Virus record (IMG/VR): IMGVR_UViG_3300033402_000312
Strand: one strand, 5' to 3'
Origin: a virus
DNA length: 64,000 nt
Shown here: positions 29,263-53,981 of the stretch, piece after piece
How positions within the stretch are numbered: the first letter of the stretch is position 1
Layout of the letters: every line of letters starts with the position of its first letter
Notes under the pieces: generated by a model
Seen by the model: only the letters and a program-made list of their open reading frames with translations
Told to the model about the DNA's origin: nothing
The model's database searches: none
Position numbers and translations under genes: made by a program

Positions 29263-29442
29263 TGACAAGGGGTGTGCCTCCAAAAATGTTCTGCCTTACT
29301 AATGAGGCAGGAAGCGGCTGCATCCGATAGATACTGCGCATTCTGGGACTTGCAGAATTGCCAGTGCTCGACTCTTGACCAAACTATCCGTTTCAAGGTA
29401 GAGGAGGGCTGTCTTGGCACGCGCCGGAATTCCAACAAAACC

Positions 29443-31080: not shown

Positions 31081-34000
31081 ATGAGCTTGCTGGACAAAAA
31101 GACGGCCAAGCAGTACGAAAACGCCAGTACGCAGATCAACGTGCCCCCGGAGGTCGCCGCCGAGATCGCCCGCATAGGGAAGAAACTGATCCCGGACGGG
31201 CACCTTGCAGGCGACGGCAGAGTTGAAGTTCTGCATGTCACAATAAAGTACGGCGTGCAGCCGAACGAACACGTCCTCCAGCAAGCCTTGGCTGGGCACA
31301 AATCCTTCGAGGTTGTGCTCGGAAAGACCACGATATTCCCCGAGGCGAGCACCGAAGCCACCCCGGTGGTGATCGAAGTCCACGGTCATGAGTTCGAGGC
31401 GCTCCACGAGACAGTCGCTGCTGTCATGGGCATCCTGCCCGACGACTTCCCTTACACCCCGCACATCACCATCGCCTACGTCAAGCAAAAAGAAGCGCAG
31501 CACTACGCCGGGAAGGACGACTTTGTCGGCATCGAGTTTGTCGCCGACGCCGTAACCCTGTCCATATTCGACGACGACAACCAGGTTGACGTCCCGCTGG
31601 CGAAAGCCGCCGCAGAGGCTATCTTAGGAGGGAGAAACACAAAAGCGTGGCTTCTTCCCAACGGTAGATTCCAGACATGGGAGTTTATCGAGCATCCTTT
31701 GGTAGAACCTGAGATGTCACCCGCCATCCGTGTTGGGCGAGGTCCCTCGGGGCATGCTTACGCCCAGATAACAGAACCGCCGACTAACGCCCAGATGAGC
31801 GCCCTCGCAGACTTGGACAAGTTCGAAAAAGGATTATTCGTTGAGATCAAAGATAAAAACTCAGATACCGTGTATGAGGGCGTCCCCGTAAGGTTTTCTG
31901 AAATTCGTCATGCGGTGAACTCTGCTTTTCCCAAAACTGCCGCGTCCCCGGCTGTAATGCCCGAAATTCCCGAGGTTGTGCCGCAGGTTCCGCAGGAACA
32001 GCCTGAAGACGAGGAAGAGGTGCAGCGCGACGAGCCTGCCACGGGAGAGAAGCGGGAGGAACCGAAGCGCCAAAGGCAGCCGAAGAACAGGCTCCTCCGG
32101 CCGAAGCAGCCCAAGCAGAGGGCACCGAAACCCCCCGTCCAAACCACGAACTTCAAGAGGTGGTTCGGCAAATCCAAGGTGCGCGACGACAGCGGCAAGC
32201 CGCTGGTGGTCTACCATGGCACGACGCATGATTTCGAGGCGTTCGACCCGAGCCAGGGCAACGTGGAGAACCACTACGGCAGGGCACTGTACTTCACGTC
32301 CTCCAAGACCGACTTGGCGGAAAACTACGCGACAGAGGCGGGGCCGGACATCACCCAACGCATCGAACTGACCGCCGAGCGCATCTTCAACGACTTGCAG
32401 GAGGAGTGGGACGAGGAGCACCCCGGCGAGGAGTTCCCGCCATACAGTTCGGACGAATACCAAAAGTTAATGGAAGAAGCGAGGCAGCAGGCGAAAAAGC
32501 AAATCGCTGGGCAGAGCCAAGGCGTGAGCATGCCCGTCTACCTCAGCCTCCAGAACCCGGTCGTCGTGCAGAAGAACGGCGGCACCGGGTTCGAACTCAA
32601 CATCGACGAGGACGGCAACGAGTCCGGCAGCGCATTAACCCTGTACCACGCGATGTTGCGCGTGGCAGGAAACTATCACCATACTGATGCGCAAGAAATA
32701 TGGGTCGATCTCATCGAACATAACGGCGAGTCGTTCAATGCCTGGGATTTCGAGCGGCAAGTTCGCAACGCGGGACATTACGTTGAGGACGACGAAGGGA
32801 ACCTGGCAAGCGGCAGCTTCATCGCAGATGTTTACCGAGAGATGGGCTTCGACGGCATCATCCAAGACGCCTACGCCGAGTTTGGGGTCGGTCAATACGG
32901 CAGAATGAAGATGGAGCCGGGCACGAAGCACTACATCGTCTGGGACCCACGCAAGGTCAAGAGCGCCATCGGCAACGTGGGCAAGTTCGACCCGGCGAAC
33001 CCCAGCATCACGGCCGCGAGCAGGCAGTACCCCGCCACGGAAGAGTGGATCGGCAGGGCGAAGAAGTTCCTGAGGGAAAAGTGGGCGCAGCGCAACGACG
33101 AAATGGGGCGCGGAGAAATTCCAAGCAACCTTGAAGGCGCGTGCAAGTTCGCGTCGCTGTTCGCCAAGGAGCTTTTCGGCGGCAGGATCGTCGGCAACCC
33201 CGAACACCAAGTTGTCCAGCACGTGTACCAGATCATCGACTTGACCGACCGATACGACCCGAATACGTTCCGCCACGACAAGGAATGGTTCGGGAACCCC
33301 GAGCATCAGGAATCCATGCAGTCTTGCATGCCCCGCGTGAAACAGTGGGCAGAGGAGTTCAGGCAAAAGCACCCGCTTGAGTCCGAGACCGATGCTAAAC
33401 TCGCAAGCGACTACCACCGAAATGTCGGCTGGCTCCTGCATGACGGCAGCTTCAAGCCCCTAATCAAAGGCGAGAGCCACCGCGAGGGGGCTGTGCGCCT
33501 CGGGCTTTCAACCGACCCGCAGGACATGACCGAGGCTTTCGACAAGGGGGCCGTGCGGGTCAGCGGGAACCAGTATACGAGCCTTGAGTTCAAGATGCTG
33601 TCGCCGAACATCGCTTCCCTGCTCCTGGACTTCATCCTACAAAAACGCAGCGACGCAAAGACAATCACCTTCGACTGGTTCAGGCCGCGACGGGCAGAGC
33701 AGGAATTCAACAGCGTGGACGACGCCGTCGAGTGGCTGGACAACCCGTTCGCCGTGATGGCTTCCGCCAAATCCGCCGCTGGCTTTAACAAGCGCGTTAT
33801 CAGCATCGACGACCTTCCGGGGGAGGCGAAAGCCGACTTGGCGGCGGAGATCGCCGAGCATCTGACCGCCATCGGATTCCAGCCCCCGTGGCAGGAGAGC
33901 GGGGCGGTGGAGGCCAACGACCTGCGCCCGGAACTGTTCGACCTCGCCGACCCGCCGCTGGTCACGGTGTACGACGCCCCGGTCGAAAGCCTGCACAAGA

Positions 34001-40000: not shown

Positions 40001-42036
40001 TTGCGCTTGGCAGCCTGCATACCCACAGCGGAGAGGGCGGAGGCGAACTCAGCCCGTGGGACGAGGAAGAAGGGCAGAGGGTCGCCAACGAACAAGGCTC
40101 CTCTTACTGGATGTTCGTCGTCGGCCCCAATCCGCTGAGTGAATCTTCCGATATACCAGGCGTGGTCATGGTGAACGACTTTTTCGAGCCTGAGACGCAG
40201 GTCAAGAAGGGTGCGCTTGAAGGCGTGGAGTACAGGGTCAATGTGCTGGATTCGCACGGCGGCGAGCTTTTCTGCACGGCTGAGGCTTGGCTGAACGGCG
40301 AGCGCGTCGGCACGGTGGACTTCAACGAATCCGAGGCGGATGTTCCTCTTGAGGACACGCGCTACTACAAAGAAGTGCAGGACGAGTACGGTGCAAAGGA
40401 GTACGAGCGTATCGCCGAAATTCCGAAGGAAGTTTGGATCAAGCATGTGTGGGTCGAGCCAACGCACCGCCGCAAGGGCATAGCCACGGGTATGTACGAG
40501 AAGATCAAGCAGGAGTTCCCCGGCGAGAAGATCGTGAGCAGCGGCACGACCCCCGAGGGCGGCGAGTTCCGCAAAAAGCTAAAAGAGCACGGCGTGCTCG
40601 CGCATAAGATGGCGGCAGACATGCCTGCCTTGGCGAGGTCAATCCAAGACGCTATTGAGGAGGCGGGACAGAAAATTCCTCGCACTAACTGGGAGGAATG
40701 GCTCAGGAAAGCGAAAGCACGTCTCAGCGAAAGAACCGGAGTGGAAGCTGATGATCTGCTTGACGACGCTATCACGGAAGCCGTAGTGAACGCACTGTTC
40801 AGGGATAACTTGGCTAAGAGATACGACCCAAGCAGAGGTCCTAGCAACTACCTGACATTCGTCCTCGGAAAGAGGGTAATGAGCGGGGGTGAAGAGTACC
40901 TGCAAAGAGAAGCGAGACAGCAACCGGAAACAATGCCGCAGGAACGTTCCGATGAAATAGAGCTTGTGGAAAACAAAAAAGACGCACAAAAATTCGTTCG
41001 CGCTTTCGGAGAATGGCTTGCAACTTTCTGTAGCAAAACACTTATGGGTTGCAAGCCTGCCGTAACCCAAAAAAGAATTTGGTTGTTGTCAATGGTGATG
41101 AAGTACGGATATCCGAAGCGAAGGGAATTAGTCGGCCCTTGGCAAAAGACATTCAATCTCAGTCTTGGAGCACTGAAAGGGTATCTCGGCGAATTGAAGA
41201 ATCTCATGAGGGAATTTGCAAGGACAGGCGGGGCTTGGGCAGAAGCCGCTGGTGCAGTCTCGTCCCTGCTAGCCAAGGAAGCTTCGTCCAAGGAGTTCAA
41301 GACCGCCCGACTTCAAAAAAACGCTGTGTACGCCGAGGCGCAGAACCAAGTCCAGCACACCGACCACGAAGCCGTGGGGATGACCAAAACGCTGAAGAGC
41401 GACCCGTTCGCCGAAGAGATGGAGGCGCTGCACAAAGACCTCGGGCAAGAAGTGCCGGAGCCGAACCCCGCCATTACGCCCAGCAAGGGCGAGGGCCAGC
41501 CGCAGGCGAAGGGCGAAGACCAGTTGCAGCTTCAGCAAGCCCAGAGGATGCAGCAGGCGAGCTTGCTAGCAGCCAAGAAACCCCTGCTCGAATCCTTGGA
41601 AGCCCTGCGCCCCGCCTTCGTCAAGGCGGCGCAGGAGGCATACGAGAACGGGCCGGAGCACGAATGGCAGGGCGTCTGTTATTGGGTCGCCTCAGCCATC
41701 TTGGAGGAGGCGCTGTCGCACAACCCAGGCTGGGGCGGAAAGGTCGTGGACTGCGGCGAGCACCACTCGTGCGCCGTCGTTTGCGACCGCAAAGAATGCT
41801 TCAGGGTTGACATTCCGTTTGCAAAGTACGAGAAGCTGATCCCGAGGGAGGAGAAGCCCGGCAACAAGGCGTACGACTACGACATGCCTTGGAGCTTTGA
41901 GACAATCGGCGACGTGGTGTTCAAGCCTGAGGACATCGAGATCGTGCCCACCAAGCGCCCGAAATGGGGCAAGAAAAGCAAGAAAATGGCTAATGACCTG
42001 CCATCGCTTGAAGAAGTGTTGGCAGAATTGGAATAG
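31081..42036 (+). CDS. giant polyvalent multidomain protein 1 (about 3,651 aa)
   Basis: Uninterrupted 10.96-kb ORF. Motifs read in order: 2H phosphoesterase (HVTI/HITI); ART/Tpt1-like (VVYHGT); Cys/His module; ParB-like (DGGHRLEAYYRAGRKTIPV); HExxH (IAHELAHH); GNAT (RQGLGTELL); second ART-like (LYHGTS...GIYLT); second ParB-like (DGAHRLAAIHELGIPV); JAMM-like (HTHSGEGGGELSPWD); second GNAT (HRRKGIATGMYE); C-terminal Cys/His module. Confidence 0.85.
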   Translation: MSLLDKKTAKQYENASTQINVPPEVAAEIARIGKKLIPDGHLAGDGRVEVLHVTIKYGVQPNEHVLQQALAGHKSFEVVLGKTTIFPEASTEATPVVIEVHGHEFEALHETVAAVMGILPDDFPYTPHITIAYVKQKEAQHYAGKDDFVGIEFVADAVTLSIFDDDNQVDVPLAKAAAEAILGGRNTKAWLLPNGRFQTWEFIEHPLVEPEMSPAIRVGRGPSGHAYAQITEPPTNAQMSALADLDKFEKGLFVEIKDKNSDTVYEGVPVRFSEIRHAVNSAFPKTAASPAVMPEIPEVVPQVPQEQPEDEEEVQRDEPATGEKREEPKRQRQPKNRLLRPKQPKQRAPKPPVQTTNFKRWFGKSKVRDDSGKPLVVYHGTTHDFEAFDPSQGNVENHYGRALYFTSSKTDLAENYATEAGPDITQRIELTAERIFNDLQEEWDEEHPGEEFPPYSSDEYQKLMEEARQQAKKQIAGQSQGVSMPVYLSLQNPVVVQKNGGTGFELNIDEDGNESGSALTLYHAMLRVAGNYHHTDAQEIWVDLIEHNGESFNAWDFERQVRNAGHYVEDDEGNLASGSFIADVYREMGFDGIIQDAYAEFGVGQYGRMKMEPGTKHYIVWDPRKVKSAIGNVGKFDPANPSITAASRQYPATEEWIGRAKKFLREKWAQRNDEMGRGEIPSNLEGACKFASLFAKELFGGRIVGNPEHQVVQHVYQIIDLTDRYDPNTFRHDKEWFGNPEHQESMQSCMPRVKQWAEEFRQKHPLESETDAKLASDYHRNVGWLLHDGSFKPLIKGESHREGAVRLGLSTDPQDMTEAFDKGAVRVSGNQYTSLEFKMLSPNIASLLLDFILQKRSDAKTITFDWFRPRRAEQEFNSVDDAVEWLDNPFAVMASAKSAAGFNKRVISIDDLPGEAKADLAAEIAEHLTAIGFQPPWQESGAVEANDLRPELFDLADPPLVTVYDAPVESLHKTLDRKYDPGDGVVRKYVEMLKSGVEFDPIFVNNGEFSDGGHRLEAYYRAGRKTIPVAEIGPFLNAPAEFWQRWLSGDENAKFAAFPKTALNVPRLVKDFGQKLVARAERDHSAPTVPPPRPGAEPATREQQVEQRATTLVNSIAQSDPSPNKEYTAWIVGNYARGGINRWEDIKSRAIPALKRFNTLKITRKLPLEERDIMKVKGMKGLEDLMEKYKEVEAISETQKEKEVEAAFFQNGGAAMVHDDPQIKVVTPKTKEAACFFGINTRWCTSAQNSYNYFESYNKKGPLYIVLIKANNQRFQFHFETESYMDERDNAVDPWDLTSQYPVLKKIFQPVVLGFMRNNANIRASFVAFVEKPTTEMMLAAVDEDPSAIDHFPNAPQEVKWRAFCRRMGFSEENYDKKLKGFVVAEYENVEEFAEERGNDTAKWAAGISSGKEDWDSDGSGFEASTVLDACKPTTIAEINEYIKFHHDASLQPWLKANEETFPLDASKIEQFMTDEGLDDVEDKLRSGWYSGEESGAQDEVIGAFKSALTDINRSTTENGTVIVFDQANMWDSKVLEILPLAEAENMVKENPGDTDLWDSSDRYHENEILKVEQPYYGFSGFSEEACNERISEEFYISDKERKERAGQQPELPLAAPAKKKRRKTKASLLEKRGVREKSVDDLGLAKKVMRELIPVLGEQLPEPELKVVNQPRAGWLGRDTWRVGIQNGKPTWGDNTTIELQAYILNDENTLRRIIAHELAHHADALVNGVEEMKKVNDKWTYKWFLRENRGRGHGMTWKQYAQKFNAKYGADFVTEKSDESYVTEEQELRPYHILLKRDYDGKLAYEVSSRISPKMKRILDRMASNKDGTEYRLTQTNDRDFYEGQLISSYYWNHPKEPEKQAKLEALWEKGQRVLPTGTAKEQDELVRLWNEAKERSKARGKAKVSDAHSDRAKTFPDADAFLKEHYTGFIPSNAYDSKDWSMWKREDFPVLLKTFTLKDGTEVELRKTGEPNKYTKVDESGEIVRDTGGLATYLSPEEVKAKGLPETDTAIFAFIMDGDCVGQASDEWGADGVWVAPQIQRQGLGTELLTELRKQFKPTRQMGQMTPAGREMAKKYYNNLLLKEAAVPQLQELQHGVSKDYDRVRWVYQQFLDSRVRSMPWQDFQKRFPWAQNSPLFTEVRQNRPRITTEDMERWMDEYDAKAKEYQNYEIEHGTYRDKETSFRDVEQLVLKVNQSASAREIVGEDPMMKEFLGQVAQGSAQSGHPAGESTVGWLRVDFIDDDWLLVDEVQSDLINAMELGKRFLAEPTLESLMSKYKSETVKQKIRDMGATEQTFQMSKREMVRRGYTVEKLEEMKRQLVNLFKDWAEYGIASLIEIARRHGIRNVAIHTGETVARRDPDLEADKAGMYYDRLAKSFGFRKQPLDVGDLKGTFWVRTASAKMPKHLYHGTSESNIAKILKEGIKIKHVRQASDGIYLTDNPSKAAEYSDSSEVLRIDTKALDSNKLRPDSDDLQAFWEEHLSEAEKEQYGNSANVPWQAVVHDLTQITYVGDIPPEAIQVIRVKTAGKRDEDVGDLKGNFWVRTASKTSPVTWEEVKKHITKTNPHEGARDAWGGMSVELPNLAWAKELIQPNDPRLDWSNLHPASKRDIRRYIKFHEKSENQDWYRGFPAVILTLENGRLFVQDGAHRLAAIHELGIPVEAYVGRQQESKQAGKRDEATTSMTVGTTDPSFPMPVLIRWEQGMRWRQVLKAVKAIVGEIAGRRVPWREIHIWASLWENQQVQQEGWATERAIGNRVMYDILHNGSFVSVGKQVATATGAEPEPEYVGNCTEDEVVAQYFGDATRLAQAIENGEKRSETEVFDPTSNLLIKYDPATDVHSFYKTADSHKVTPLDETYYNSPESGEETNAYADVPERVRGIYDVPPLKELAPQLFEKDAAGKKYPFAAVKRVADRWFRKNWRTVQSGWGDQVSYEVGFTIYLDQNGKVQMTKLAQGDTAEVEIPAPPEGCIALGSLHTHSGEGGGELSPWDEEEGQRVANEQGSSYWMFVVGPNPLSESSDIPGVVMVNDFFEPETQVKKGALEGVEYRVNVLDSHGGELFCTAEAWLNGERVGTVDFNESEADVPLEDTRYYKEVQDEYGAKEYERIAEIPKEVWIKHVWVEPTHRRKGIATGMYEKIKQEFPGEKIVSSGTTPEGGEFRKKLKEHGVLAHKMAADMPALARSIQDAIEEAGQKIPRTNWEEWLRKAKARLSERTGVEADDLLDDAITEAVVNALFRDNLAKRYDPSRGPSNYLTFVLGKRVMSGGEEYLQREARQQPETMPQERSDEIELVENKKDAQKFVRAFGEWLATFCSKTLMGCKPAVTQKRIWLLSMVMKYGYPKRRELVGPWQKTFNLSLGALKGYLGELKNLMREFARTGGAWAEAAGAVSSLLAKEASSKEFKTARLQKNAVYAEAQNQVQHTDHEAVGMTKTLKSDPFAEEMEALHKDLGQEVPEPNPAITPSKGEGQPQAKGEDQLQLQQAQRMQQASLLAAKKPLLESLEALRPAFVKAAQEAYENGPEHEWQGVCYWVASAILEEALSHNPGWGGKVVDCGEHHSCAVVCDRKECFRVDIPFAKYEKLIPREEKPGNKAYDYDMPWSFETIGDVVFKPEDIEIVPTKRPKWGKKSKKMANDLPSLEEVLAELE

Positions 42037-42906
42037 ATGCAGCAAATAGACTTTACCGTACCTAAGTGTATGCTATTACATAACATCTATGTTCTTACTG
42101 ATCCTTTGGAACCCGACCATATTCGATATGTGGGATACAGCCGACACTTGCCTGAAACTCGCTTGAGGCGACATATCATTGAAGCCCGGTCGTCGCATAA
42201 GGATTCTCGCACTTACAAGAATACTTGGGTTCGTAAATTGCTTAGGGAAAATCGCATACCCACAGCGCTTTGGATTGAAGCTACTAGCGATCCTGACGAA
42301 GCTGAGAAACGCTGGATACAAAAACTCAAGGCGGAGGGACATTCCTTGACAAACGGAACAGATGGTGGGATAGGCGGACCTCCGGGTGTTCACCGGGGGC
42401 ACAAACACTCGGAGGAAACCAAGCTACGTTGGAGCCAAAAGAGGCGTGATGGTGTCAGAAAAACTTCATCCATTTTGAAAGCCGCACAATCCAATTCAGG
42501 GCAAACAAGAACCGCAGAGCAAAAAACTCGCATCAGCGAAGGAAAGCGCAAAGCGTGGGCATTGAGAAAAGAAAAAGGACTGGACGCACATAGGAGAACT
42601 TACACAATCATCTTTCCCGATGGTCATTGTGAAGAAGTGTCCTCTTTGCATGAATGGTGTACACAGAACAAGATAAGCTATGACATGATGACCCGAGTTA
42701 CCGGGGGGAAATGCGAATCCTATCACGGCTACGCCTGCGAAACCCATAACGGGGATCGAGCACAAAAGATAGCTGCCTTTATTGTGGCTAACCCAAAAAT
42801 CAGCTACAAAAAAATAGCAACACACTTTTCCACAACCAAACCGACAGTTCTGTCTGTCGTGCGCAAGTACAACTTGTATCGCAAACAGAGACAGCCAAAT
42901 GTCTAG
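42037..42906 (+). CDS. GIY-YIG homing endonuclease (Seg/I-Tev-like) with NUMOD3-like repeats
   Basis: NIYVLTDP...IRYVGYS...RLRRH (GIY-YIG). HSEETKLRWSQKRRDG and TAEQKTRISEGKRKAW (NUMOD3-like). The ATG immediately follows the giant ORF stop (TAGATG). Confidence 0.8.
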   Translation: MQQIDFTVPKCMLLHNIYVLTDPLEPDHIRYVGYSRHLPETRLRRHIIEARSSHKDSRTYKNTWVRKLLRENRIPTALWIEATSDPDEAEKRWIQKLKAEGHSLTNGTDGGIGGPPGVHRGHKHSEETKLRWSQKRRDGVRKTSSILKAAQSNSGQTRTAEQKTRISEGKRKAWALRKEKGLDAHRRTYTIIFPDGHCEEVSSLHEWCTQNKISYDMMTRVTGGKCESYHGYACETHNGDRAQKIAAFIVANPKISYKKIATHFSTTKPTVLSVVRKYNLYRKQRQPNV

Positions 42907-44383
42907 TTGCTATCTTCTTCACTTTGATCGAGGCCTTCCCCATGGTGCTCAAGCCGAGACAAGGCACTATCTCGGGTTCAGCACTGCTCCCGAGGAACGC
43001 ATCGCGCAGCATTTCAGCGGCGAGGGCGCACGTTTAATGCAAGTACTTTACGAACGCGGAATCACTTTCACTGTCGCCCGCATCTGGAACAACTGTGAAC
43101 GAAAGTTTGAGCGGCGCTTGAAGAGCCAAGGCGGACTCTCTCGTCATTGTCCAATTTGCCTGAATCTGGGATTGATTCCCACTTCACGGGCACGAAGCAA
43201 GGCTTTAAGTGACGTGCAACCTGTCCCCAAGACCATGCAGCCCAAGACGGCCGCTGGCGCTGTGGACATCGACTGGGAGACCGGCATGTTCGAGAACTAC
43301 AAGCTCGTCCCAAAGTACTCGTACCACGAGTACGGCGACCCAATCGACGAGGACGAGGCGATTGGCGAATTGAACTGGAACATGCTGGTCGTGAGCGTGT
43401 TCGACACCGCCAAGGAGCAAAGGGGAAAGCCGGGCAAGCAGGTCGGCGAAGCCGACTTCGTGCTGCGCGGCGGGCGGCTTGAGTCCGCGAACACCGAAGT
43501 GGACAAGAGCTACTGGAGGCGGGGCATAGCCACGGCATTGTACCAGTACGCCGAGAGCTTGACCGGATTCAAGACGAAGCCACACTCGACGCAGTCCCCG
43601 GAAGGACGCGCCCTGTGGCAGCAGGGGAGCAGGCCGTTCGGCAAGTCCGGCTCGGACAAGCCCATGATGGAAATGCACCGCAAGGGCGCTGTTGTCTGGA
43701 TCGACTGGTTCGAGGTTCCGGCGAGCCAGCAGGGCAAGGGCTTAGGCAGGAAGTACTACGAGGCGTGGGAACAAAAGCTGCCCAAAAACGTGAAGCTTGT
43801 TCGGCTGTTCGCAGGTAATACGGACACCGGAGAAGCGTCGGGCTTCTGGGCAAAGATGGGCTTCGAGAATGTATTCTACGACGAAGAAAGTCAGTACAGC
43901 TTCTACATGTGGAAAGGCGTGAACGGCAACCCGACGCCGCCGCCGATGGATTCCCCCGACGAAGACCCCGGCTACGACGTCGAGGACGAACCGGAGAAGA
44001 CGGCGTCCAAGACGGCTGCAAACCGTGTGAGCGGCGAGGACGTGGTCGCTTACGTCATGAAGCTCAACGAGTGGGACAGGGACACGGCTTATCAGGTCGT
44101 GGGGCCGGACGCCGGGGGCGACTACGTGCTGCGCGACTTCCCGCTCAGCAAGCTGAGCGCAGGGGACGATTACGACCCGGAGCAAGCGGAGCAGTACTCA
44201 AGAATGGAGGGCCCGCTCCCGCCCATCGTGCTGGGGCTGGAGTCTAGGGCGCACCGCGACAAGCCGGAAATGGTGACGTACTATGTCATCCGCGACGGGA
44301 ACCATCGCGTGGCGGCGGCAAAGCTGCGCGGGGATAGCAAGATCAAGGCGTACGTCCCAGCGGACGCTACGAAGGTTAAGTAA
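42899..44383 (+). CDS. GIY-YIG-like / GNAT / ParB-like multidomain protein (494 aa)
   Basis: N-terminus YLLHF...HYLGFS...RIAQH (GIY-YIG-like). GNAT-like SYWRRGIATALY and QQGKGLGRKYY. C-terminal YYVIRDGNHRVAAAKLRG (ParB-like). Confidence 0.7.
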   Translation: MSSCYLLHFDRGLPHGAQAETRHYLGFSTAPEERIAQHFSGEGARLMQVLYERGITFTVARIWNNCERKFERRLKSQGGLSRHCPICLNLGLIPTSRARSKALSDVQPVPKTMQPKTAAGAVDIDWETGMFENYKLVPKYSYHEYGDPIDEDEAIGELNWNMLVVSVFDTAKEQRGKPGKQVGEADFVLRGGRLESANTEVDKSYWRRGIATALYQYAESLTGFKTKPHSTQSPEGRALWQQGSRPFGKSGSDKPMMEMHRKGAVVWIDWFEVPASQQGKGLGRKYYEAWEQKLPKNVKLVRLFAGNTDTGEASGFWAKMGFENVFYDEESQYSFYMWKGVNGNPTPPPMDSPDEDPGYDVEDEPEKTASKTAANRVSGEDVVAYVMKLNEWDRDTAYQVVGPDAGGDYVLRDFPLSKLSAGDDYDPEQAEQYSRMEGPLPPIVLGLESRAHRDKPEMVTYYVIRDGNHRVAAAKLRGDSKIKAYVPADATKVK

Positions 44384-44384
44384 A

Positions 44385-47300
44385 ATGCGCTGGTATCACG
44401 GCACAAGTCGGCAGAACGCCAAAAAAGCCCTCAAGGAGGGCATTCTCAAGCCGGGGGAGGACTCCATTTATGACGTGGACGTCCCGCGAGATGATGCCGT
44501 ATACATAACTTCGGAATACCAAATCGCCAAATACTACGCTGAAGAGCATAGTTGGCAGGGCAAAGGCGGCGTGGTCTTGGAGGTTGCCGCCAACGAAGGC
44601 AGCTTGATGCCTGACGAGGACGCAATTTACGACGCCCTGCATGAGGGCGCTGTGGTGCTGGGCGAGAAAAGCAGCAAAAAGCTGGGGCAGGCGATCCGCA
44701 AGGCATGGCTGAGGCACTGGAAGTCCATCGAAGGCGAAGGCGACACGTTCGAAGAGGCATGGGAAGCGTGGGGGAATGTGGAAGCCGAGGGTTCGTCGGG
44801 GATCGCCGAAGAGATGAAGGAACTGACTGAGGAAATCCATAGGGAGAACCCGGCTCTGTCCAAGGCTATCATCGAAGCCAGCGGCAAAGCTGCGCACATC
44901 GGGCCGGTGAAGGTCATGGGCATCGCCAAGAAGCAAACCGCAAAACCGGACCTGTCAAACGATCAAGAGCCTCTGGAGGCGGCGCGGCAAATGCTTGCGG
45001 AGCTTGGCGGAAACGAGAAACTCTGCGGAAAAAGCAAAGTCGTGCATGGGTATTGGATCGAGACCCACACGCTGGGATGCCGCAACGCCGCAGACGAGCC
45101 GGAAAGCGAGTGGGAAGCCAACCACAAGCGCATCAGGGACGAATACGCCAACGACGGCGTCAGTATCGTCCTGGACGACAAGAATTCCAGCAACTTCGCG
45201 ACGGTGACCCCGCAGTCCAAGACCGCAGCCAAGAAGGTCAGGGTCGTCAAGACTCCGGGCTTCATGATCGAAGTGCCGCAGGAACGTCGCAAGACGTTTT
45301 TCATCCGCCCGAAGACCCCGCTGGAGTACTGGGCTTTCAAGAACCGCCCCCGCGTCTTCGTGAACGAGCCGCTTATCTTCACGTTCGGCGGAAAGCCCGT
45401 GGCGGAAGCTGTAGCCGTGAGGGTCGAGGCCCCCGGTCGCGGCGAGGGCGAGTACAGGCACTGGCACAAGGTGTACTGGAAGCCCACGAGCTTCAAGAGG
45501 TTCCGTATAACTGCGTCTGAGCGACCCGGAGTGTTGTACCACATCAGCCGCCGCACCAACCGCCAGTCCATCCTGAAGAACGGACTGCTGCCGTTGCTCA
45601 AAGAGTACAAGGATGTAGAGCGTGCGCCGGGAATCTATTTCTTCCAGAGCATCGACGCCGCGAAGGACTACGGCTTCTACCACGCGCAGCATGTCAACCA
45701 AGCTCTCGACATCTGGGAATGCCGCATCCCCGAAGGCTACGAGGTGCGCCATGACCCGCACCCGGAGATGGACGAGTTCGATGCGTGGATGAGCCATGAG
45801 CCGCTGCCCCCGGAAAACCTGAAAGTCGTGGACACGATCCTCGTGCCGAAGTCCACTGCCGACGCGCCTCCTCCCTACAAGAGCCAACGCGGCGACAAAT
45901 TCAAGAGAATGTATGAAGAGCGAGTCCGGGAATTTGCTTACCGGGGCAAAGGTGCTGCTGGGAAACCAGTTCCATGGAAGTCCGACCTGCTGCGCTGGGA
46001 CAGGCTCACCGCGTGGGAAGACAGGAACACCGCGAACGACGATGCCGAGTACACATCCGAGGAGATCGAGGAGAAGTACAGACTCGCGCCGCCCAGCGAG
46101 ACGCGCAGGGGCGTCAACGCCGCGCTGCTCAAGTCCGCCAAGGCTAATTTCCCGACCTTCGAGCAGGTGATCGACAAAAAGACCGACACGAACAACGAGT
46201 TCGAGATTGACATGTGGAAGGGCGAGGAACTGGGAAACAGGCGCAAAGAGTACGACGAGTTGCTCCGGCAAATGAAGGCGCTGAAGTTCCCGCTCACGGT
46301 GTACCGCTGCTTCGCGCTCAAAGAGGGCGAAAAGATCGACTACAGCAGCCTCGGCGGCTCGTGGTCTCTCAACAGCCGGGCAGCGTACTTGGTTTCCCAC
46401 GAACTGTTTCCCGACGACGAGGGCTACGACTACAAGACCGTCGCGGGCACCATCCAAAGCCCGGATGCCGTGGACTGGCTCAACACCATGCGTGCCTGGC
46501 TGACCTTGCCGGACGAGGAGGAGATCAGGCTGAAGCCCGGCGCGAAAGTCGGGGTCCGGGGGAAGACCCGCACCGCAACCGGCAAAAAATTCTATCACGG
46601 TACGAAAAAGAAGAACCTTGACGACATCCTGAAAAACGGTTTGAAGGTCGAGATGTCCGAGGCGCACACCGAATGGGGCAGGGCAATCTACCTAGCGTGC
46701 GATGCCTACACCGCCGCGAACTACGAGGGCATGCACGGAGGCGGCGAGCCGTGGGCGATCCTTGAGATCGACGGCAGTAAGCTGAACGAATACTACATGC
46801 GCCCGGACGACTACGACTTCCCCGACCTCTGGGAACAAGCAGGGCGCAAGGAGAACTGGGCGCACCAGACATGGCAGACGAGCCTCAAGGTGTCGTGCCA
46901 GATCGCCTATCTCGCCGACATCCCGGCAAGCGCCATCAAGGTGCATCCGTACAAAAAGAACAATGTTCCGGCAAAAAATACGCAAAAAGAGTTTCTCGAC
47001 AGCCACACCGTGGAGCAGGTCGCGGAGCACTTCGGCATCACGCCCGCAGCCGCAGCCAAGGCGAAATCCGAGGGCATAGTGAAGAAAGCCGATATGACCG
47101 AAGACCCCGACTACTACATGACAGAAGGCTGCGGCATCTGGGCGGTGGACTTCGCCCGGAAGAACGGCGGGGAGATATACATCCTGTCGGCGGAGCGCGG
47201 CGAGGAGTGGAGCGAGGAAATCCCGTACGAGGTCACGCACGCCTTCGTGAAGAAGGACGGCAGGACCTACGACGTCCGGGGCGAGCGGACGCCCGACAAG

Positions 47301-50300
47301 ATGGCCTGGGAGCTAAGCATGGGCGAGTACACCGTCAAGGGGCCGTGGACGCCCGACGAGTTCGAGGCCAAGTTCATGGGCAGCACCGACGATAAGCCGC
47401 TGTTCGGCAAGGAGAGTGCCAAGACCGCGACGATGCCCCCTCGCGGGCGGTTTATGTGGCACGTTACCCCAATGCGTAACGTACCCTCGATCAAAAAGAA
47501 CGGGCTGATTCCGCAAGTGGGCGAACGCAGCGCCGAAGGGGGCGAGAAGCCAGGCATCTTCCTCTTTCCGACAAAGCAAGGAGTAGAGGATGCCCTTACT
47601 GGATGGCTCGGCGAATCCTTTGAGAACACTCCCGAGGAACTGGCTATCGTTGAAGTAGCTGTGCCAGAAGATGTTCAAATGGAGGATTCCACTGATTACA
47701 CCACTCAGTTCGAAGTGGTCATCCGTCAGCCGTTGCCAGCGAACTACATCCGCAGGATATACACGGAAAAAGAGTTCGAAGACCACCTTGCCCGAATTGC
47801 CTCCAAGACCGCCGACAAGGTCATCGGCGTGGGCGAAGGGGACGAGTACTGGGCGGGAGAGGGCAACGCCGCGTCCGGCGTGCTGCCCGTGTGCCCGAGC
47901 AAGGGCACGGTGTGCCTCGCGTGGAGAAGCCCCTATGTCATGAGTCCCGACTGCTGGGGCACCATCGGCGGGGCGGTCAAGAAAGGCATGAGTCCGCAGC
48001 AGAGCGCGAAGACCGAGATGGCGGAGGAGACGGGGTACCACGGCGGGATCAGGCTGATTCCCGCGTACACTTTCTTGGATCGCGGCTTCAAGTATTTCAA
48101 CTTCGTCGGCGTGGTGCCGAACGAGTTCCCGTTCAGCCCCGGCGAAGGGCACGGCTGGGAGACCGACCACATCGCGTGGGTGCCCTACGAGCAGGTCGTC
48201 AAGGACATGCAGGAGAACCCCGGCGACTACCATCCCGGCTTGCTCAAGCTGTTCGCCAACTCCAAGGACGCCATCGAGCGAGCGCTGAAGATCAAAAAGC
48301 AAGGAGCCATTAAGACTGCCTCTATTGATACCAACGGTTGGATCACCCCCGATGGAGACTGGGAACCGCTGGAAGACGGAGAAACTCATGTCAACGCAAT
48401 CCAACGCCTGCTAAATCGCGACGATGTTTTTGAAAAAGATGGATTGAAAGAAGGATATATCCGAGTTCATTACCAGGATTACGTGCCCGGTCAACCCATC
48501 GAAGCCTACTTTCTTTGCGAAAAACGCACGTCACACAATTTTGCCTTGGTCAGGGAAGCGATCCATGATTTGCCGTCTCAGACTAAGCAAGTAGCGGTCG
48601 TGTTCAAACATCCCGAAGATTATCAAACATACACGTTTGAGGAGGCACTGGAGGATTTCCCCCGCCGTGCTGTTTTCGCGGCCGAGAAGCAAAGCGCCAT
48701 CGTGAGACGCGGCGCGTTCGACCCGTTATGGATGAAGCGCTGGGTCGAGGGCGGCTGCTGGCTGTTTGCGCTGGCTTTGCAGCCTCTCATCCCCGGCTCG
48801 GTGTTCGTCGGTCTCGCTAGAGAAGGCGAAGTCCTTGAGCACGTCGGCGTGCGCAAGGGTGACAGGTACTACGACGTGCGCGGGGAGATGGACGAGACCG
48901 AGTTCAACTACGGAGCCGACTCCGAGGTTCCTCTCCATATCGTGCCCGTGGACTACGAGCAGGTGATGAGGGACGGGGAGTACGGAAGCTGGCTCGGGCA
49001 CGAGGACGAGTTCGAGACCCTGCCGGAGATGCAGGCGGCTAAGGAAGCTGTGCAGAAAGTATTCGGCAAGGGCAAGACCGCAGAAGTCAACCCAACAGCC
49101 CCACCGCCAAGTTCCAGCCGCCTCCCGTGCCCCAGCGGCAAGCGCAAGTTCTACGACGAAGTGTCGGCAATCGGCCCCCACAAGCAGTGGAGCAAGGGCA
49201 CGCCGAACCTCCGCGCCTACAAGTGCCCGATATGCGGCTGGTGGCACCTGACGAGCAAGCCGCAAAGAGTGACGGCGAACCTCCATGGGATGGGGACGTT
49301 CTATCACGGGACATCATGGGCAGAGGCAGACCAAATCAAGGTCGAGGGCCTCAAAGCCCACCCATGGGCTTTCAACGACAAATCGTACGTCTGGTGTACG
49401 CTGATCGAGCAGCTTGGCATCAGCTATGGGGAATCCAAAACGGAGAATAGCTCAGAACCCGGATACGTCGTAAGCTTCGAATGGGATTACGACCAAACGG
49501 AACCCGACCCCGAGCATGGGGAAGAGTATGAGGACGTATATCGTCGCATCGAGGGCGACGTGCCAGCCTCCGCCATCACCGGCATCAACTATTACGCCCC
49601 GGATCACAGGCTTGTGAAGACAGCAGCCGGGCAGAAGCAGGCGGATGCCGCCTTGAACGACTTCTTGGCAGGCAGGATTTCCAAGGAAGAGTACAAGGCG
49701 ATGCTCTCAGGGGAAAGCCAGCCGGAGCAGGCACCGCAGCAACAGCACTTGTTCCCGTCTTCGCAAGACGCAAAGTTCAAAGCTTGGTTCGACGGCTCGA
49801 AGGTCGTGGACAAGAACGGGAACCCGATGCCTGTGTACCACGGCACGCGCTCATCCGTGGAATTCGAGGAGTTCAGCGTCGAGGGCCCGCCACAAACAGA
49901 TTCATACGAAAATGAAACCACGTCTTCCGGCTCCGGTGCAGACCCGACCGCGTTCCTCGGCGCTCACTTCGCTGAGGAAACAAACGTCGCCAACCTGTTT
50001 GCCGAGGGCAAGGGCTGGACGGGCGTCCGCTACGAGGGGGAGCAGCCCAAGCCCCGCGTGATACAGGTTTTCCTGCGGATCACGAATCCGAAGGACTTCG
50101 GCAGCGAGCACAACCTGCGCGAGTTCATTAACCAAGGCAAAATCGCCGACGATGAGGTGACCAATCTCGTTATGGAAAATCGTGACGGGATTAACTATTG
50201 GGAGCCAGAGCAAGAACAAGCGGCGCAGGAGTGGGGTGAAAAGTATGAGAACGATCAAGCCTTCCGCACTGAAGTCAACCGTTACCTGTGGGAGCAGCAT

Positions 50301-53300
50301 AGCACGGGATCAGAATACGAAGGTGAACAGGACAGGTTAAATTCCGCTGCCTACGATCTCGCTATGCAGGCACGGAATCGTCTGACCACCGCTGGTTATG
50401 ATGGGGTTCGCTATAAGAACGTGGTCGAGGGCGGTCACGCATGGATCGCGTTCGCGGCGAACCAGATCAAGAGCGTCTATTCCCAGTTCAACCCGAAAGA
50501 CCCAAGCTTCACCGCTTCCAAAGACGCAGCAACCCATACGCCAGAATATGCGCAGAAACTTGTGGAAGCGCTGAAGCAGACCGTCACGGACGCAGACTTC
50601 CGGGTTATCGGCTCCGTGGGAGCCGGGCAAGAATCCGAGAACGACATTGACATCATGGTGGACATTCGCCCGGATGCCGCCTTTAAGGACGATCAAGCTT
50701 GGATCGACACCAGCGGCCTGACCGGGGCGATGAAGCTGCTGGGCTTCGACTACCTCGGGCCGTCCGATTTCGCACCGGGGGAAAGCGCGGAGAAGTCCGA
50801 GGCGAGCGGCAAATACCTCGACCCGGCAGGCTCCGGCGTCGAGAAGTTCTTCAACCCGACGACATACCACACGGTCGAGTTCTGGTTCACCGAGTCCGGC
50901 ATGCCGAAGGAAGCGGATTGGAGGAGCAAGTACGTGCTGCCGACAGCCCTTGCGTTGGGTCTCGGCGCTCCGTCCAGCGTGCACCCCGACGAAGTGACTC
51001 CGCAGCAAATCGAGCAGGTGCGCGAGGAGCAGGCGAAAAAGCGGATCGACGCCCTCGTCGAGGCGATCTCCCGCGCCGAGGGCGCTAAGCCGGAACTCAA
51101 CAACCCCGGCAACCTCGTGGACTTCAACACGGGCAAGATCAGGACGTTCGATTCGTGGGAAGAGGGCCGCAACGCGTTGGCTGAGCAGCTTGAGCGCATC
51201 GCTGACGGCGACCACCCGAACATCAAGCCCGACATGACGCTGCGCGAAGCCGGGCTGGTCTACAGCAACGGCGACCCGAACTGGGCGAAAAACGTCTCGC
51301 GCATCATGCGCGTGCCGGAAACCATAAAGATGCAAGAACTCGTCCGTGGACGCACGGAAGAGGCGGGCGTGGCTGCGACGCCTTCCGGCAAGATAGGATG
51401 GCTCAGGAAGGCTGCGGGCTTCGCGTTCAAGTCCTTCAAGAAGCTCTGGCACGTCGGCAGCATGAACCCCAAGGACAAGCGGCCCGGCTCGCTGGAGGGC
51501 GTCGGTCTCAGCGTGAGCGTACATCCCGAGGAGTGGAAAGGGATCGCGGAGATCGGCGGCCCGACATGGGAACTGACCAAGCCGGGCAACAAATTCCTGA
51601 ACTTCTACCGCCTCAGCAAGACGCAGCGCAAGCAGATCGCCGTGTGGGGCGTCGCGAACGGCTATGCCACCGAGGTCGCCATCGGCTGGCGCTGGTATTT
51701 CACGGACGCCGAGACCGACGAAGAGCGCTACATGGAGTTCGAGACCGAGCAGGAAGCCCAAGAGGAGATGGAAGGTCAAGGCATAGGCGAGGTGCGCCCG
51801 GCGAAAGGCTCCAGCATGAAGGGCACGGAAAAGCTCAAGCAGCGCACCAAGAACCCGAAGGCGGACGATATGGTCGTCGCCTTCGACTTGCTTGTCACCG
51901 TGTATGCCGAGGATGAGCTTGACTGCGACGGCGTCTGGTGGGAAGACATCTTCGATCCCGCCTCCCTGTCCGCGCCTCGCGGCGTAATATTCCCTGGAAA
52001 ATTGTCATCATGGAAAAAGAAGAAGGTCGAAGAAGTAGATGACGAAGGTGCTGCACCGATCAATAGGGAAATCGATATGCTGGAGCAGGAGATCAAAAAA
52101 CACGGCGACCCCACCGGAATGCTGACTGATCACCTGAAAATGCTCAAGCAGAAAAAGTCCGGCGCAGCGAAGACCGCAGCTAGGCTTGCTGCCTACGACC
52201 CAGCCCGTGCCGCGCAATTTTCTGTTAGGGTTATCAAACATCCCACCAACCCCAACATGTTTGATGTGCGAGCCGTGGACGTAGGTAAGGGGTGGGCGGG
52301 GACGGTTTCCGTTACACAGAAAGGCAAGGATTTCTATGTCACTCAGTCTGTGCTTTACAAGCCCTACCAAGGCATTGGTTTGGGGTCCCGCTTGTACGCC
52401 TGGGCGATGGATGAGGCCGAAAAGCGGGGCGGTGAACGTTTTTGGTCTGACGTAGAAGTCAGCTTGGACGCTCAAAAGATTTGGGAACGGTTGGACGCCG
52501 GTTTTGATGAAGAAAGCGGGAGATTTTTTATCCCGTTGATGGCCACGGTCAAAACCGCAACCGCAGAGTTCTTCCGGGACTCGAACGGGGTGCTGTGGGC
52601 GAAAGACCCCGCGCTGTCGCCGAACCCCGTCTCCATCCCCAACCGAATCCCTGAGGGCGAGCGCGAAGCCTACGTCGCCGAAAAGCTGAGGCAGCAGGGC
52701 GAGATGGACGCTGCCCTTAAAACTGAACGGGCGAAAAAGAACCCGGCGAAAAAGAACCCGTGGCAAGAGTGGAACCACGGGCTTGGTACAGTTGACCCAA
52801 CGGAGGTCGTCAAGAAGCTCGAAGCGGAAGGCAAGGAAGTCAAGGTGCGGCTCATCCCCTTGGGCTATTACAAGATTTGGTTCAGGGACAAGACCGCAGC
52901 GAAACCCAAGCCCAGCCCGACGCAGGTCGCCGCGCTGCAAGGCATGGCTGCGGGCGACGGCACCATTCACCGGGAGAAGGGCGGCTTCTGGATTTGGGGC
53001 GACTACATCGTCGGTTGGGACAGTCTTGGATTGCCTATCTTCAAAGGCGAGGAGGAAGGCAGGCATCTTGAGCCGCGCCCGTGGGTTGACATCCGCACCG
53101 TGCGGGCGATGGAGTCTCGCGGCTGGGTGAAGCGCACGAACAAATTTCCTGAAGAGTGGAGAGATAACCGTAAAATAACGGACGCTGGGCGTGCGCTCAT
53201 CGCAGGCAAGACTGCCGATCTTGACGAGGATGATGACATTTATGACCAGCCTGTTGAGTACTTTGCCCACAGTGCGTGTTGGCTTTACGCCTTCGCGCTG

Positions 53301-53981
53301 CACAAACTCACAGGGCTGCCGATGGTATCAATCTCTGATCCCCACGAAGGTGTTATTCATGCCGCCGTCGAGCGTGAAGGAAAGCTTCTGGACTCTAAGG
53401 GCGAATTCACGCTTAAGCAAATCGGAAAACGCTATGGGCTGAAAAACCCGTTCACTCTTCCGTTGACCGAAGAAGGTGTGGAGTATTTTTACGGCATCAA
53501 CGAGCACGAGCTTGAACGGGCGATGGAAGTTGCCCGCGAGCAGGTCAAAAAGCTGGGCATTAAGACCGCAGCGGCAGAAATCTACCTGTACCACGGCACC
53601 TCGGAAGACAACTGGAACGCGATCATGGAAGCCGGGGGTGTGGTTCCCGCTGGAAGCTGCTGGGGCACCGAGCGGGTAGCCGAATACTACGCAGAGGACC
53701 GCGCTGAGGCGCAGACGAACGACGCCATCTACAACGAATTGGGCACGCGGGTTGAGGAGGCTATCATCCGCGTCCCGCTTTCGCGGTTCGACGAGACGAA
53801 CCTCAAGCCGGACGGCAACTCCGTCGCGGAGCCGTTGACTTTCACCTTGCAGCGTAGCGAAGAAGACCTTTATGCTGACTGGCAGAAAGCCGGGGGCACA
53901 TGGCAGGATTCGCTCCGCATCTACGAATCCGTGCGCTACGACGCGCCCATGAAAGTCACCAAAAAAGACCGCTACGTATAG
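44385..53981 (+). CDS. giant polyvalent multidomain protein 2 (about 3,198 aa)
   Basis: Start MRWYHGTS one codon after the previous stop. Seven YHGT-type ART/Tpt1-like modules. Three Cys/His modules (GCGIWAVDFA, GGCWLFALAL, SACWLYAFAL). Nudix (WGTIGGAVKKGMSPQQSAKTEMAEETGY). MNT nucleotidyltransferase (GSVGAGQESENDIDIMV). Possible GH73-like (AEGAKPELNNPGNLVDF). GNAT (QGIGLGSRLYAW). Confidence 0.85.
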   Translation: MRWYHGTSRQNAKKALKEGILKPGEDSIYDVDVPRDDAVYITSEYQIAKYYAEEHSWQGKGGVVLEVAANEGSLMPDEDAIYDALHEGAVVLGEKSSKKLGQAIRKAWLRHWKSIEGEGDTFEEAWEAWGNVEAEGSSGIAEEMKELTEEIHRENPALSKAIIEASGKAAHIGPVKVMGIAKKQTAKPDLSNDQEPLEAARQMLAELGGNEKLCGKSKVVHGYWIETHTLGCRNAADEPESEWEANHKRIRDEYANDGVSIVLDDKNSSNFATVTPQSKTAAKKVRVVKTPGFMIEVPQERRKTFFIRPKTPLEYWAFKNRPRVFVNEPLIFTFGGKPVAEAVAVRVEAPGRGEGEYRHWHKVYWKPTSFKRFRITASERPGVLYHISRRTNRQSILKNGLLPLLKEYKDVERAPGIYFFQSIDAAKDYGFYHAQHVNQALDIWECRIPEGYEVRHDPHPEMDEFDAWMSHEPLPPENLKVVDTILVPKSTADAPPPYKSQRGDKFKRMYEERVREFAYRGKGAAGKPVPWKSDLLRWDRLTAWEDRNTANDDAEYTSEEIEEKYRLAPPSETRRGVNAALLKSAKANFPTFEQVIDKKTDTNNEFEIDMWKGEELGNRRKEYDELLRQMKALKFPLTVYRCFALKEGEKIDYSSLGGSWSLNSRAAYLVSHELFPDDEGYDYKTVAGTIQSPDAVDWLNTMRAWLTLPDEEEIRLKPGAKVGVRGKTRTATGKKFYHGTKKKNLDDILKNGLKVEMSEAHTEWGRAIYLACDAYTAANYEGMHGGGEPWAILEIDGSKLNEYYMRPDDYDFPDLWEQAGRKENWAHQTWQTSLKVSCQIAYLADIPASAIKVHPYKKNNVPAKNTQKEFLDSHTVEQVAEHFGITPAAAAKAKSEGIVKKADMTEDPDYYMTEGCGIWAVDFARKNGGEIYILSAERGEEWSEEIPYEVTHAFVKKDGRTYDVRGERTPDKMAWELSMGEYTVKGPWTPDEFEAKFMGSTDDKPLFGKESAKTATMPPRGRFMWHVTPMRNVPSIKKNGLIPQVGERSAEGGEKPGIFLFPTKQGVEDALTGWLGESFENTPEELAIVEVAVPEDVQMEDSTDYTTQFEVVIRQPLPANYIRRIYTEKEFEDHLARIASKTADKVIGVGEGDEYWAGEGNAASGVLPVCPSKGTVCLAWRSPYVMSPDCWGTIGGAVKKGMSPQQSAKTEMAEETGYHGGIRLIPAYTFLDRGFKYFNFVGVVPNEFPFSPGEGHGWETDHIAWVPYEQVVKDMQENPGDYHPGLLKLFANSKDAIERALKIKKQGAIKTASIDTNGWITPDGDWEPLEDGETHVNAIQRLLNRDDVFEKDGLKEGYIRVHYQDYVPGQPIEAYFLCEKRTSHNFALVREAIHDLPSQTKQVAVVFKHPEDYQTYTFEEALEDFPRRAVFAAEKQSAIVRRGAFDPLWMKRWVEGGCWLFALALQPLIPGSVFVGLAREGEVLEHVGVRKGDRYYDVRGEMDETEFNYGADSEVPLHIVPVDYEQVMRDGEYGSWLGHEDEFETLPEMQAAKEAVQKVFGKGKTAEVNPTAPPPSSSRLPCPSGKRKFYDEVSAIGPHKQWSKGTPNLRAYKCPICGWWHLTSKPQRVTANLHGMGTFYHGTSWAEADQIKVEGLKAHPWAFNDKSYVWCTLIEQLGISYGESKTENSSEPGYVVSFEWDYDQTEPDPEHGEEYEDVYRRIEGDVPASAITGINYYAPDHRLVKTAAGQKQADAALNDFLAGRISKEEYKAMLSGESQPEQAPQQQHLFPSSQDAKFKAWFDGSKVVDKNGNPMPVYHGTRSSVEFEEFSVEGPPQTDSYENETTSSGSGADPTAFLGAHFAEETNVANLFAEGKGWTGVRYEGEQPKPRVIQVFLRITNPKDFGSEHNLREFINQGKIADDEVTNLVMENRDGINYWEPEQEQAAQEWGEKYENDQAFRTEVNRYLWEQHSTGSEYEGEQDRLNSAAYDLAMQARNRLTTAGYDGVRYKNVVEGGHAWIAFAANQIKSVYSQFNPKDPSFTASKDAATHTPEYAQKLVEALKQTVTDADFRVIGSVGAGQESENDIDIMVDIRPDAAFKDDQAWIDTSGLTGAMKLLGFDYLGPSDFAPGESAEKSEASGKYLDPAGSGVEKFFNPTTYHTVEFWFTESGMPKEADWRSKYVLPTALALGLGAPSSVHPDEVTPQQIEQVREEQAKKRIDALVEAISRAEGAKPELNNPGNLVDFNTGKIRTFDSWEEGRNALAEQLERIADGDHPNIKPDMTLREAGLVYSNGDPNWAKNVSRIMRVPETIKMQELVRGRTEEAGVAATPSGKIGWLRKAAGFAFKSFKKLWHVGSMNPKDKRPGSLEGVGLSVSVHPEEWKGIAEIGGPTWELTKPGNKFLNFYRLSKTQRKQIAVWGVANGYATEVAIGWRWYFTDAETDEERYMEFETEQEAQEEMEGQGIGEVRPAKGSSMKGTEKLKQRTKNPKADDMVVAFDLLVTVYAEDELDCDGVWWEDIFDPASLSAPRGVIFPGKLSSWKKKKVEEVDDEGAAPINREIDMLEQEIKKHGDPTGMLTDHLKMLKQKKSGAAKTAARLAAYDPARAAQFSVRVIKHPTNPNMFDVRAVDVGKGWAGTVSVTQKGKDFYVTQSVLYKPYQGIGLGSRLYAWAMDEAEKRGGERFWSDVEVSLDAQKIWERLDAGFDEESGRFFIPLMATVKTATAEFFRDSNGVLWAKDPALSPNPVSIPNRIPEGEREAYVAEKLRQQGEMDAALKTERAKKNPAKKNPWQEWNHGLGTVDPTEVVKKLEAEGKEVKVRLIPLGYYKIWFRDKTAAKPKPSPTQVAALQGMAAGDGTIHREKGGFWIWGDYIVGWDSLGLPIFKGEEEGRHLEPRPWVDIRTVRAMESRGWVKRTNKFPEEWRDNRKITDAGRALIAGKTADLDEDDDIYDQPVEYFAHSACWLYAFALHKLTGLPMVSISDPHEGVIHAAVEREGKLLDSKGEFTLKQIGKRYGLKNPFTLPLTEEGVEYFYGINEHELERAMEVAREQVKKLGIKTAAAEIYLYHGTSEDNWNAIMEAGGVVPAGSCWGTERVAEYYAEDRAEAQTNDAIYNELGTRVEEAIIRVPLSRFDETNLKPDGNSVAEPLTFTLQRSEEDLYADWQKAGGTWQDSLRIYESVRYDAPMKVTKKDRYV

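Follow-up and report, generated by a model that had tools for sequence, protein, structure and literature searches.

The 64,000-nucleotide stretch of viral DNA analysed here (IMG/VR virus record IMGVR_UViG_3300033402_000312, hereafter the window) carries two giant open reading frames (ORFs) on the + strand, P1 (31078..42036; 3652 amino acids, aa) and P2 (44283..53981; 3232 aa from the first ATG). Between them they hold several copies of a small module built around a cysteine, a histidine and an aspartate, which is the subject of this work. The true start of P2 is likely the Met at 44385, directly past the stop of ORF 42899-44383. Comparison of the ORF list with Pfam shows that P1 contains a 2H phosphoesterase domain (2_5_RNA_ligase2), ART-PolyVal, two GNAT domains and a PARP-like ADP-ribosyltransferase (ART), with a weak match to an SprT-like zincin, and that P2 contains ART-PolyVal, a PARP-like ART, NUDIX and GNAT, with Phage_YunG-like below the cut-off. 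Both therefore join many disparate effector-type domains in one polypeptide, as is the case for the 'polyvalent proteins' of phages and conjugative elements described by Iyer et al. 2017 (PMC5512222), with which they share ART-PolyVal, PARP-like ART, GNAT, NUDIX, 2H phosphoesterase and zincin-like domains. Since each has several Pfam domains including ART-PolyVal, and since a close relative of P2 was found on a 169.6-kb IMG/VR viral contig, we conclude that P1 and P2 are polyvalent proteins in this sense.

A preliminary description of this DNA had proposed that a novel Cys...His module is repeated five times in these proteins. The five peptides that it quoted are indeed present, in frame, inside the two giant + strand ORFs; the given starts lie 1-7 codons upstream of the first quoted residue. 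We refer to these stretches as c1 and copy 2 (in P1) and c3, c4 and c5 (in P2). The six-frame translation of the window was scanned, with filters off, using a family hidden Markov model (HMM) that comprises 163 domain matches from 150 listed proteins and excludes the window's own sequences. The model finds exactly four copies, all on the + strand, and the next best score is ~2 bits. Copy c1 (33076..33402; 110 bits) belongs to a c1-type subfamily and has Cys689 at 33142-33144, His710 at 33205-33207 and Asp721 at 33238-33240. The three copies of P2 are c3 (47085..47354; 72 bits; Cys 47130-47132, His 47238-47240, Asp 47271-47273), c4 (48684..49016; 77 bits; Cys 48756-48758, His 48840-48842, Asp 48873-48875) and c5 (53226..53534; 98 bits; Cys 53277-53279, His 53358-53360, Asp 53391-53393). 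With E-values of 1e-21 to 1e-33, these four copies are true homologues, far beyond chance. Of the proposed repeat, four copies thus stand and the fifth, copy 2, does not.

The divergence between the four copies is considerable. Pairwise BLASTP among the five stretches gave 25-28.5 bits for c3/c4, c4/c5 and c3/c5 (28.5 for c3/c4), just 17 bits for c1/c4 and nothing for copy 2. Furthermore, when the giant proteins were compared with themselves by BLASTP (E <= 1e-3), ART repeats alone were recovered and no Cys-His copies, which implies that the latter are too diverged for BLAST at this threshold. Copy c1 represents a separate subtype with its own homologues (23 domains); alignment of the c1-type profile to that of the remaining members with hhalign yielded a probability of 86% (P 5e-6) and superposed the Cys, the His and the Asp. 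The other copies also have relatives of their own: c3 has a copy at 89% identity in an IMG/VR locus, c4 has a relative at 64% identity (P0151) and c5 has a close homologue (P0001). Altogether, c1, c3, c4 and c5 are four diverged paralogues of three subtypes in two giant polyvalent proteins, where ADP-ribosyltransferase, acetyltransferase and NUDIX domains are their neighbours. As a separate observation, ~27 residues of c5 (53271-53360, covering the Cys helix and the first strand) weakly match the ring nuclease Csx3 in Pfam (E 0.048), in TIGR02579 (E 0.022) and in PADLOC (E 0.004). We judged these matches to be due to chance, although the three libraries agree with each other, and did not retain a Csx3 identity for c5.

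Contrary to the four supported copies, copy 2 (41650..41877, + strand, with Cys3534 of P1 at 41677-41679) has no support as a member of the family. The family HMM did not match it in the six-frame scan, hhalign against the family gave a probability of 2.6% over 22 columns around the Cys, and no homologue of the region was found among 5.8 billion proteins or in IMG/VR. Its His-to-Asp distance, 15 residues, is the sole value outside 11-13 in the family alignment. A single-sequence AlphaFold2 (AF2) model of copy 2 (predicted local distance difference test, pLDDT, 63) places a Cys-bearing helix before three strands with the His and the Asp, an order of elements that would be compatible with the fold described below and is no proof of it. 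A relative of the locus in IMG/VR (L006) sheds light on the origin of this region. There, a single ORF runs colinear first with P1 (C-terminal half) and next with ORF 42899-44383, and it lacks both P1 aa 3482-3652 and the GIY-YIG gene at 42037-42906 (together, window 41521-42906). As the copy 2 region is absent from this colinear relative, it looks, from the comparison of the two loci, like part of an insertion that, together with the GIY-YIG homing-endonuclease-like gene, split an ancestral giant ORF. A chance motif match is the likeliest reading for copy 2.

To describe the conserved residues we used a MAFFT alignment of 96 sequences, in which the five stretches of the window are joined by 91 small homologues. 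The His and the Asp are present in all 96 and the Cys in 94, the other two being one Ser and one truncated sequence, so the two residues that the preliminary description had singled out are kept in homologues. Other positions are also well preserved: Gly at Asp+3 (92/96), Ala at Cys+4 (90/96, with Ser in the remaining 6), Gly at Cys+12/13 (92/96) and an aromatic residue at Cys-5 (82/96). All this is seen in a family whose members are merely 12-31% identical to c4. The Cys, which has the signature [YFW]-x-x-G-[GA]-C-x-x-[FL]-A-x-A-L, is at the start of a helix; the His motif, H-[VA]-x-V, is in the second strand after that helix; and 11 residues on, in the next strand, comes the Asp motif D-x-x-G. 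The original motif therefore needs this third residue, the Asp at His+11, to be added. Moreover, its 'DRYD' element is unconserved in the c1 subtype; in c1 itself the conserved His belongs to 'EHQ' and the Asp to 'IIDLT'. The Cys-to-His spacing was given as 30-36 residues; the actual values are 21, 36, 28 and 27 in c1, c3, c4 and c5, within a family range of 21-39 (median 27.5), and the His-to-Asp spacing is 11-13 apart from copy 2. Such a short Cys-to-His distance is, as had been noted, unusual compared to papain, NlpC/P60 or CHAP peptidases, but it is little below the ~38-41 residues of the deamidase/N-acetyltransferase group, from which the best structural matches come. In SseI, PMT and NAT the two spacings are ~38-40 and ~15 residues.

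The family extends well beyond the window. A seed profile was made from c1, c3, c4, c5 and one close homologue that came from a word-indexed search. Searches of the word-indexed type returned merely 1 and then 8 matches, and an exhaustive HMMER search of 1.84 billion cluster representatives was needed to reveal a homologous family of 214 representatives at E <= 1e-3, 16 of them at E <= 1e-10. Among the 150 homologues listed, 91 are of at most 200 aa, 29 exceed 500 aa (up to 2831 aa) and 15 carry at least two copies. Three short homologues were looked up, and each is a gene of its own on a phage-like contig. Among their neighbours are genes for a DnaB-like helicase, DNA polymerase III alpha, VanY, NUDIX and GIY-YIG proteins and many small ORFs. 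Their being separate genes implies that the domain works on its own. The larger homologues bear NUDIX, ART-PolyVal, GNAT or ParB_N domains, which identifies them as polyvalent proteins similar to those of the window. Standalone homologues of every subtype exist elsewhere, and the relatives shuffle subtypes. A 2652-aa ORF of L006 (5904-13862) has c3-, c4- and c1-type copies where P2 has c3, c4 and c5, and in another locus (L005, 24-1946) a 640-aa protein carries at its N-terminus three copies of different subtypes in direct tandem, of which the first is weakly detected (domain E 0.013). The presence of multiple subtypes per ORF in relatives fits a battery of specificities. In GenBank phages, tblastn with c1, c3 and c4 gave no match, and the N-terminal 1000 aa of P2 aligned with two phage records over neighbouring domains only; a scan of genome contigs with c1 recovered no relative.

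Comparison with family libraries shows that the module is less isolated than first thought. Its description as novel, with no family to be assigned, was overstated: c4 matches the Pfam family Phage_YunG-like (PF24591) at 25.1-25.2 bits (E 1.6e-5) and c1 matches YunG (PF24585) at 18.3 bits (E 0.0026), and 31 of the 96 aligned sequences match PF24591 at E <= 0.01 (best 1.5e-7), with 4 of the 96 matching PF24585. P0151 already has a precomputed PF24591 annotation. No window copy reaches the curated gathering cut-off of these families, 27 bits for both, and c3, c5 and copy 2 do not match them at E <= 10. Homology to members of PF24591 and PF24585 is found through transitive profiles, and on that basis the module is best described as a below-threshold relative of Phage_YunG-like and YunG and not as a curated member. 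These are the sole library families that the module matches, and no function is attached to them; they also differ from the window in that their members are small standalone proteins, whereas here the domain recurs inside proteins that exceed 3000 aa. In PHROGs only families without known function were matched, and in NCBIfam and PADLOC nothing meaningful was found besides the weak matches of c5 mentioned above. Nothing about the module would greatly surprise a specialist.

Structure prediction points to a fold for this family. AF2 modelling of c4 with the 96-sequence alignment gave a mean pLDDT of 82.7 and a predicted template modelling score of 0.75. The model is arranged as helix 15-22, helix 26-36, strands 41-46, 52-59, 62-65 and 68-70, helix 72-77, strand 86-89 and helix 92-102. 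Helix 26-36 begins with Cys26, while His54 is in strand 52-59 and Asp65 in the adjacent strand 62-65, so that a putative nucleophile at the N-terminus of a helix is followed by a His and an Asp on neighbouring strands. The overall fold resembles solved papain/transglutaminase-like proteins. The best matches in a fold search with the model were protein-glutaminase (5.0), arylamine N-acetyltransferases (4.8-3.9) and transglutaminase-like proteins, and AvrPphB, Pasteurella toxin C3, Ceg10, TecA, Tae3, menin and UfSP were also found; OspI, VASH1, PeiW, NlpC/P60 and staphopains came lower in the list. Foldseek found no significant match in the PDB, where several of the weak ones were papain-like; its matches in BFVD, with a probability near 1, came from Bacillus phage AR9, Vibrio phage X1 and Salinibacter phage SRUTV-1 and are uncharacterised proteins. 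A sequence search of the PDB returned no related structure. By predicted structure, then, the module would be a minimal member, of ~100 aa, of the papain/transglutaminase-like superfamily.

Several of the enzymes closest to the module in predicted shape belong to what Ozhelvaci and Steczkiewicz (PMC10318531) call 'cluster III', which groups SseI, PMT, protein-glutaminase, OspI, Transglut_core, NAT, menin and VASH and consists mostly of deamidases, transglutaminases and acetyltransferases serving as toxins or effectors; YunG is unmentioned in that work. The module is about half the size of cluster III enzymes, and SseI, the PMT-C3 deamidases, protein-glutaminase, OspI, NAT and transglutaminase-like proteins have no detectable sequence-profile similarity to it. 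NlpC/P60 and CHAP amidases are further away: the module has no Pfam match to them, their structural scores are below those of the deamidase/transferase group, their third residue and spacings differ, and the module has no cell-wall-binding or lysis context.

The best explanation for these observations, to which we assign a probability of roughly 0.6, is that the module is a minimal papain-superfamily thiol enzyme with a putative Cys-His-Asp triad, used as an injected effector on a host protein. At the level of predicted fold and conserved residues, this agrees with the 'thiol hydrolase or transferase' put forward in the preliminary description. The data show that four copies are homologous, that three residues are conserved, which fold is predicted and which domains surround the module; catalysis, the type of chemistry, the target and the delivery are inferred. 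The thiolate would attack the carbonyl of an amide or thioester, and the resulting acyl-enzyme would be resolved by water, as in a deamidase or peptidase, or by an amine, as in a transglutaminase or acyltransferase. A host protein would serve as substrate, paralogues would differ in specificity, and the domains would act as effectors whose delivery or synthesis takes place early in infection. Side-chain deamidation, transamidation or acyl transfer seems more likely than endoproteolysis, because of the analogy with the best structural matches. Several points weigh against this explanation. No Pfam family of the papain clan and no PDB sequence of the superfamily was matched at E <= 10. The conservation counts carry an ascertainment bias, as the profile used for retrieval already weights these columns. 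Finally, a literature search found no paper or experiment on YunG-like proteins, PF24591 or PF24585, the whole word 'YunG' returning author names only.

A module of papain-like shape could also be non-catalytic, that is, a binding, scaffold or inhibitor domain, or it could be a small metal-binding module with Cys, His and Asp as ligands. The domain is indeed very small and may lack an oxyanion-hole element, as cluster III may in general, and the literature holds no reported activity. On the other hand, exactly the three triad positions are near-invariant at 12-31% identity to c4, with a fixed His-to-Asp spacing, and the lone replacement of the Cys is by Ser, which is another nucleophile. The Cys at the N-terminus of a helix in the c4 model is, furthermore, the hallmark of the catalytic Cys in the papain fold. 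The fold search found no known metal site of such a three-ligand topology, and the metal-binding module that had been offered as an alternative is also disfavoured by the predicted fold, which is the one seen in papain-superfamily thiol enzymes. The pattern of conserved residues and the Cys-to-Ser replacement hence make a non-catalytic or metal-binding role unlikely. Even less credit can be given to the idea that the repeat as a whole is a chance motif match in very long, Cys-poor proteins. It accounts for copy 2, with its 22-column match around the Cys and its want of homologues, and for the failure of BLASTP at E <= 1e-3 to detect any copy within the giant proteins; yet it is very hard to reconcile with the HMM E-values of c1, c3, c4 and c5, with a window that holds nothing else above ~2 bits and with the standalone homologues of each subtype, and we rejected it for these four copies.

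Another possibility is that the modules are processing peptidases that cut the giant proteins in cis or in trans and release their effector domains, much like the multiple papain-like leader proteases in polyproteins of positive-strand RNA viruses. A candidate cleavage site is provided by the tripeptide K-T-A, which occurs 17 times in P1 and P2 together (2.2 expected), at domain boundaries and often followed by A, S or T (for example at 47421-47429, 49074-49082, 53208-53216 and 53562-53570). It is also enriched in ORF 42899-44383 (3 against 0.12 expected) and 4-fold in 29 large homologues (39 against 9.5). Its codons vary between sites, which argues for selection on the peptide, as expected of a peptide-level linker or cleavage motif; for the same reason we rejected K-T-A as a DNA-level recombination joint. 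In c3, c4 and c5 a K-T-A is found 97-106 residues past the Cys, c5 is flanked by K-T-A at P2 aa 2976 and 3094, and several module copies are present per polyprotein. The release of polyvalent-protein domains by embedded peptidases has, besides, been proposed by Iyer et al. 2017 (PMC5512222). Against such a role, K-T-A borders all kinds of domains and not this module in particular, there is none near c1, and in L006 the c3- and c4-type copies are followed by the linker sequences NTAA and KDAA, so that the tripeptide is not conserved at those positions. Most of the listed homologues (91/150, of at most 200 aa) are short, and the three looked up have no polyprotein to process; the tandem trio of L005 has no cargo in between. 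The zincin-like HExxH domain of P1 could be the processing enzyme, and the proteins that match best in structure are side-chain amidases and transferases rather than endopeptidases. We therefore regard processing at K-T-A as rather doubtful, and keep a thiol enzyme acting on a host protein as the preferred explanation.

The two giant ORFs and their surroundings show further features. The ART motif Y-H-G occurs 8 times in P1 and P2 against 0.4 expected, which makes ADP-ribosyltransferase-like domains the most repeated module of these proteins (examples are P1 aa 370-427 and 2400-2525 and P2 aa 762-887 and 1843-2066). Several of these ART-like domains directly adjoin Cys-His-Asp copies: they precede c1 and c3 and follow c5. 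Downstream of c4, P2 has a Cys-rich stretch ('CPSGKRKFYDE...YKCPICGWWHL', 49100-49230) that is conserved in L006 and looks like a zinc ribbon. Just upstream of P1, ORF 29272-31002 (+) codes for two joined domains, an inorganic pyrophosphatase (InPase) and a RelA/SpoT alarmone-synthetase-like one. On the opposite strand, a gene for endonuclease VII with a helix-turn-helix (53983-54693, -) abuts the stop codon of P2 and is probably another homing-endonuclease-type insertion. The neighbouring genes, coding for InPase + RelA_SpoT, GIY-YIG, endonuclease VII, a ClpB-like ATPase, an SNF2 helicase, an RNA ligase and a DNA methylase, make up a set that fits a large phage.

Phages and plasmids are thought to send polyvalent proteins into the host as toolkits. 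The published catalogue of the domains in these proteins (Iyer, Burroughs, Anand, de Souza and Aravind 2017; PMC5512222) names four peptidase superfamilies (zincin MPTase, assemblin-like, DD and LonC), and the words 'papain', 'cysteine', 'thiol' and 'YunG' occur nowhere in its text; it follows that the Cys-His-Asp module appears to be missing from it. The module would thus add a domain to a catalogue without a papain-fold thiol enzyme. It also provides a function-level hypothesis for the functionally blank YunG-like family, with three precise residues to mutate, and a profile search that reaches members missed by the curated Pfam models. The domains are self-contained, ~100 aa long and easy to express and test and, if active, they are potential new protein-modifying reagents or anti-defence factors. 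The K-T-A linker, for its part, is a testable handle on whether and how the giant proteins are processed. More tentatively, YunG-like modules may be unrecognised, phage-delivered minimal deamidases, transglutaminases or acyltransferases, present as batteries of diverged paralogues within polyvalent proteins, each of which would put a different host protein, for example an immunity or transcription factor, out of action, or else self-releasing proteases acting at K-T-A linkers. Were the latter true, they would represent a DNA-phage counterpart of the processing of RNA-virus polyproteins by multiple papain-like proteases.

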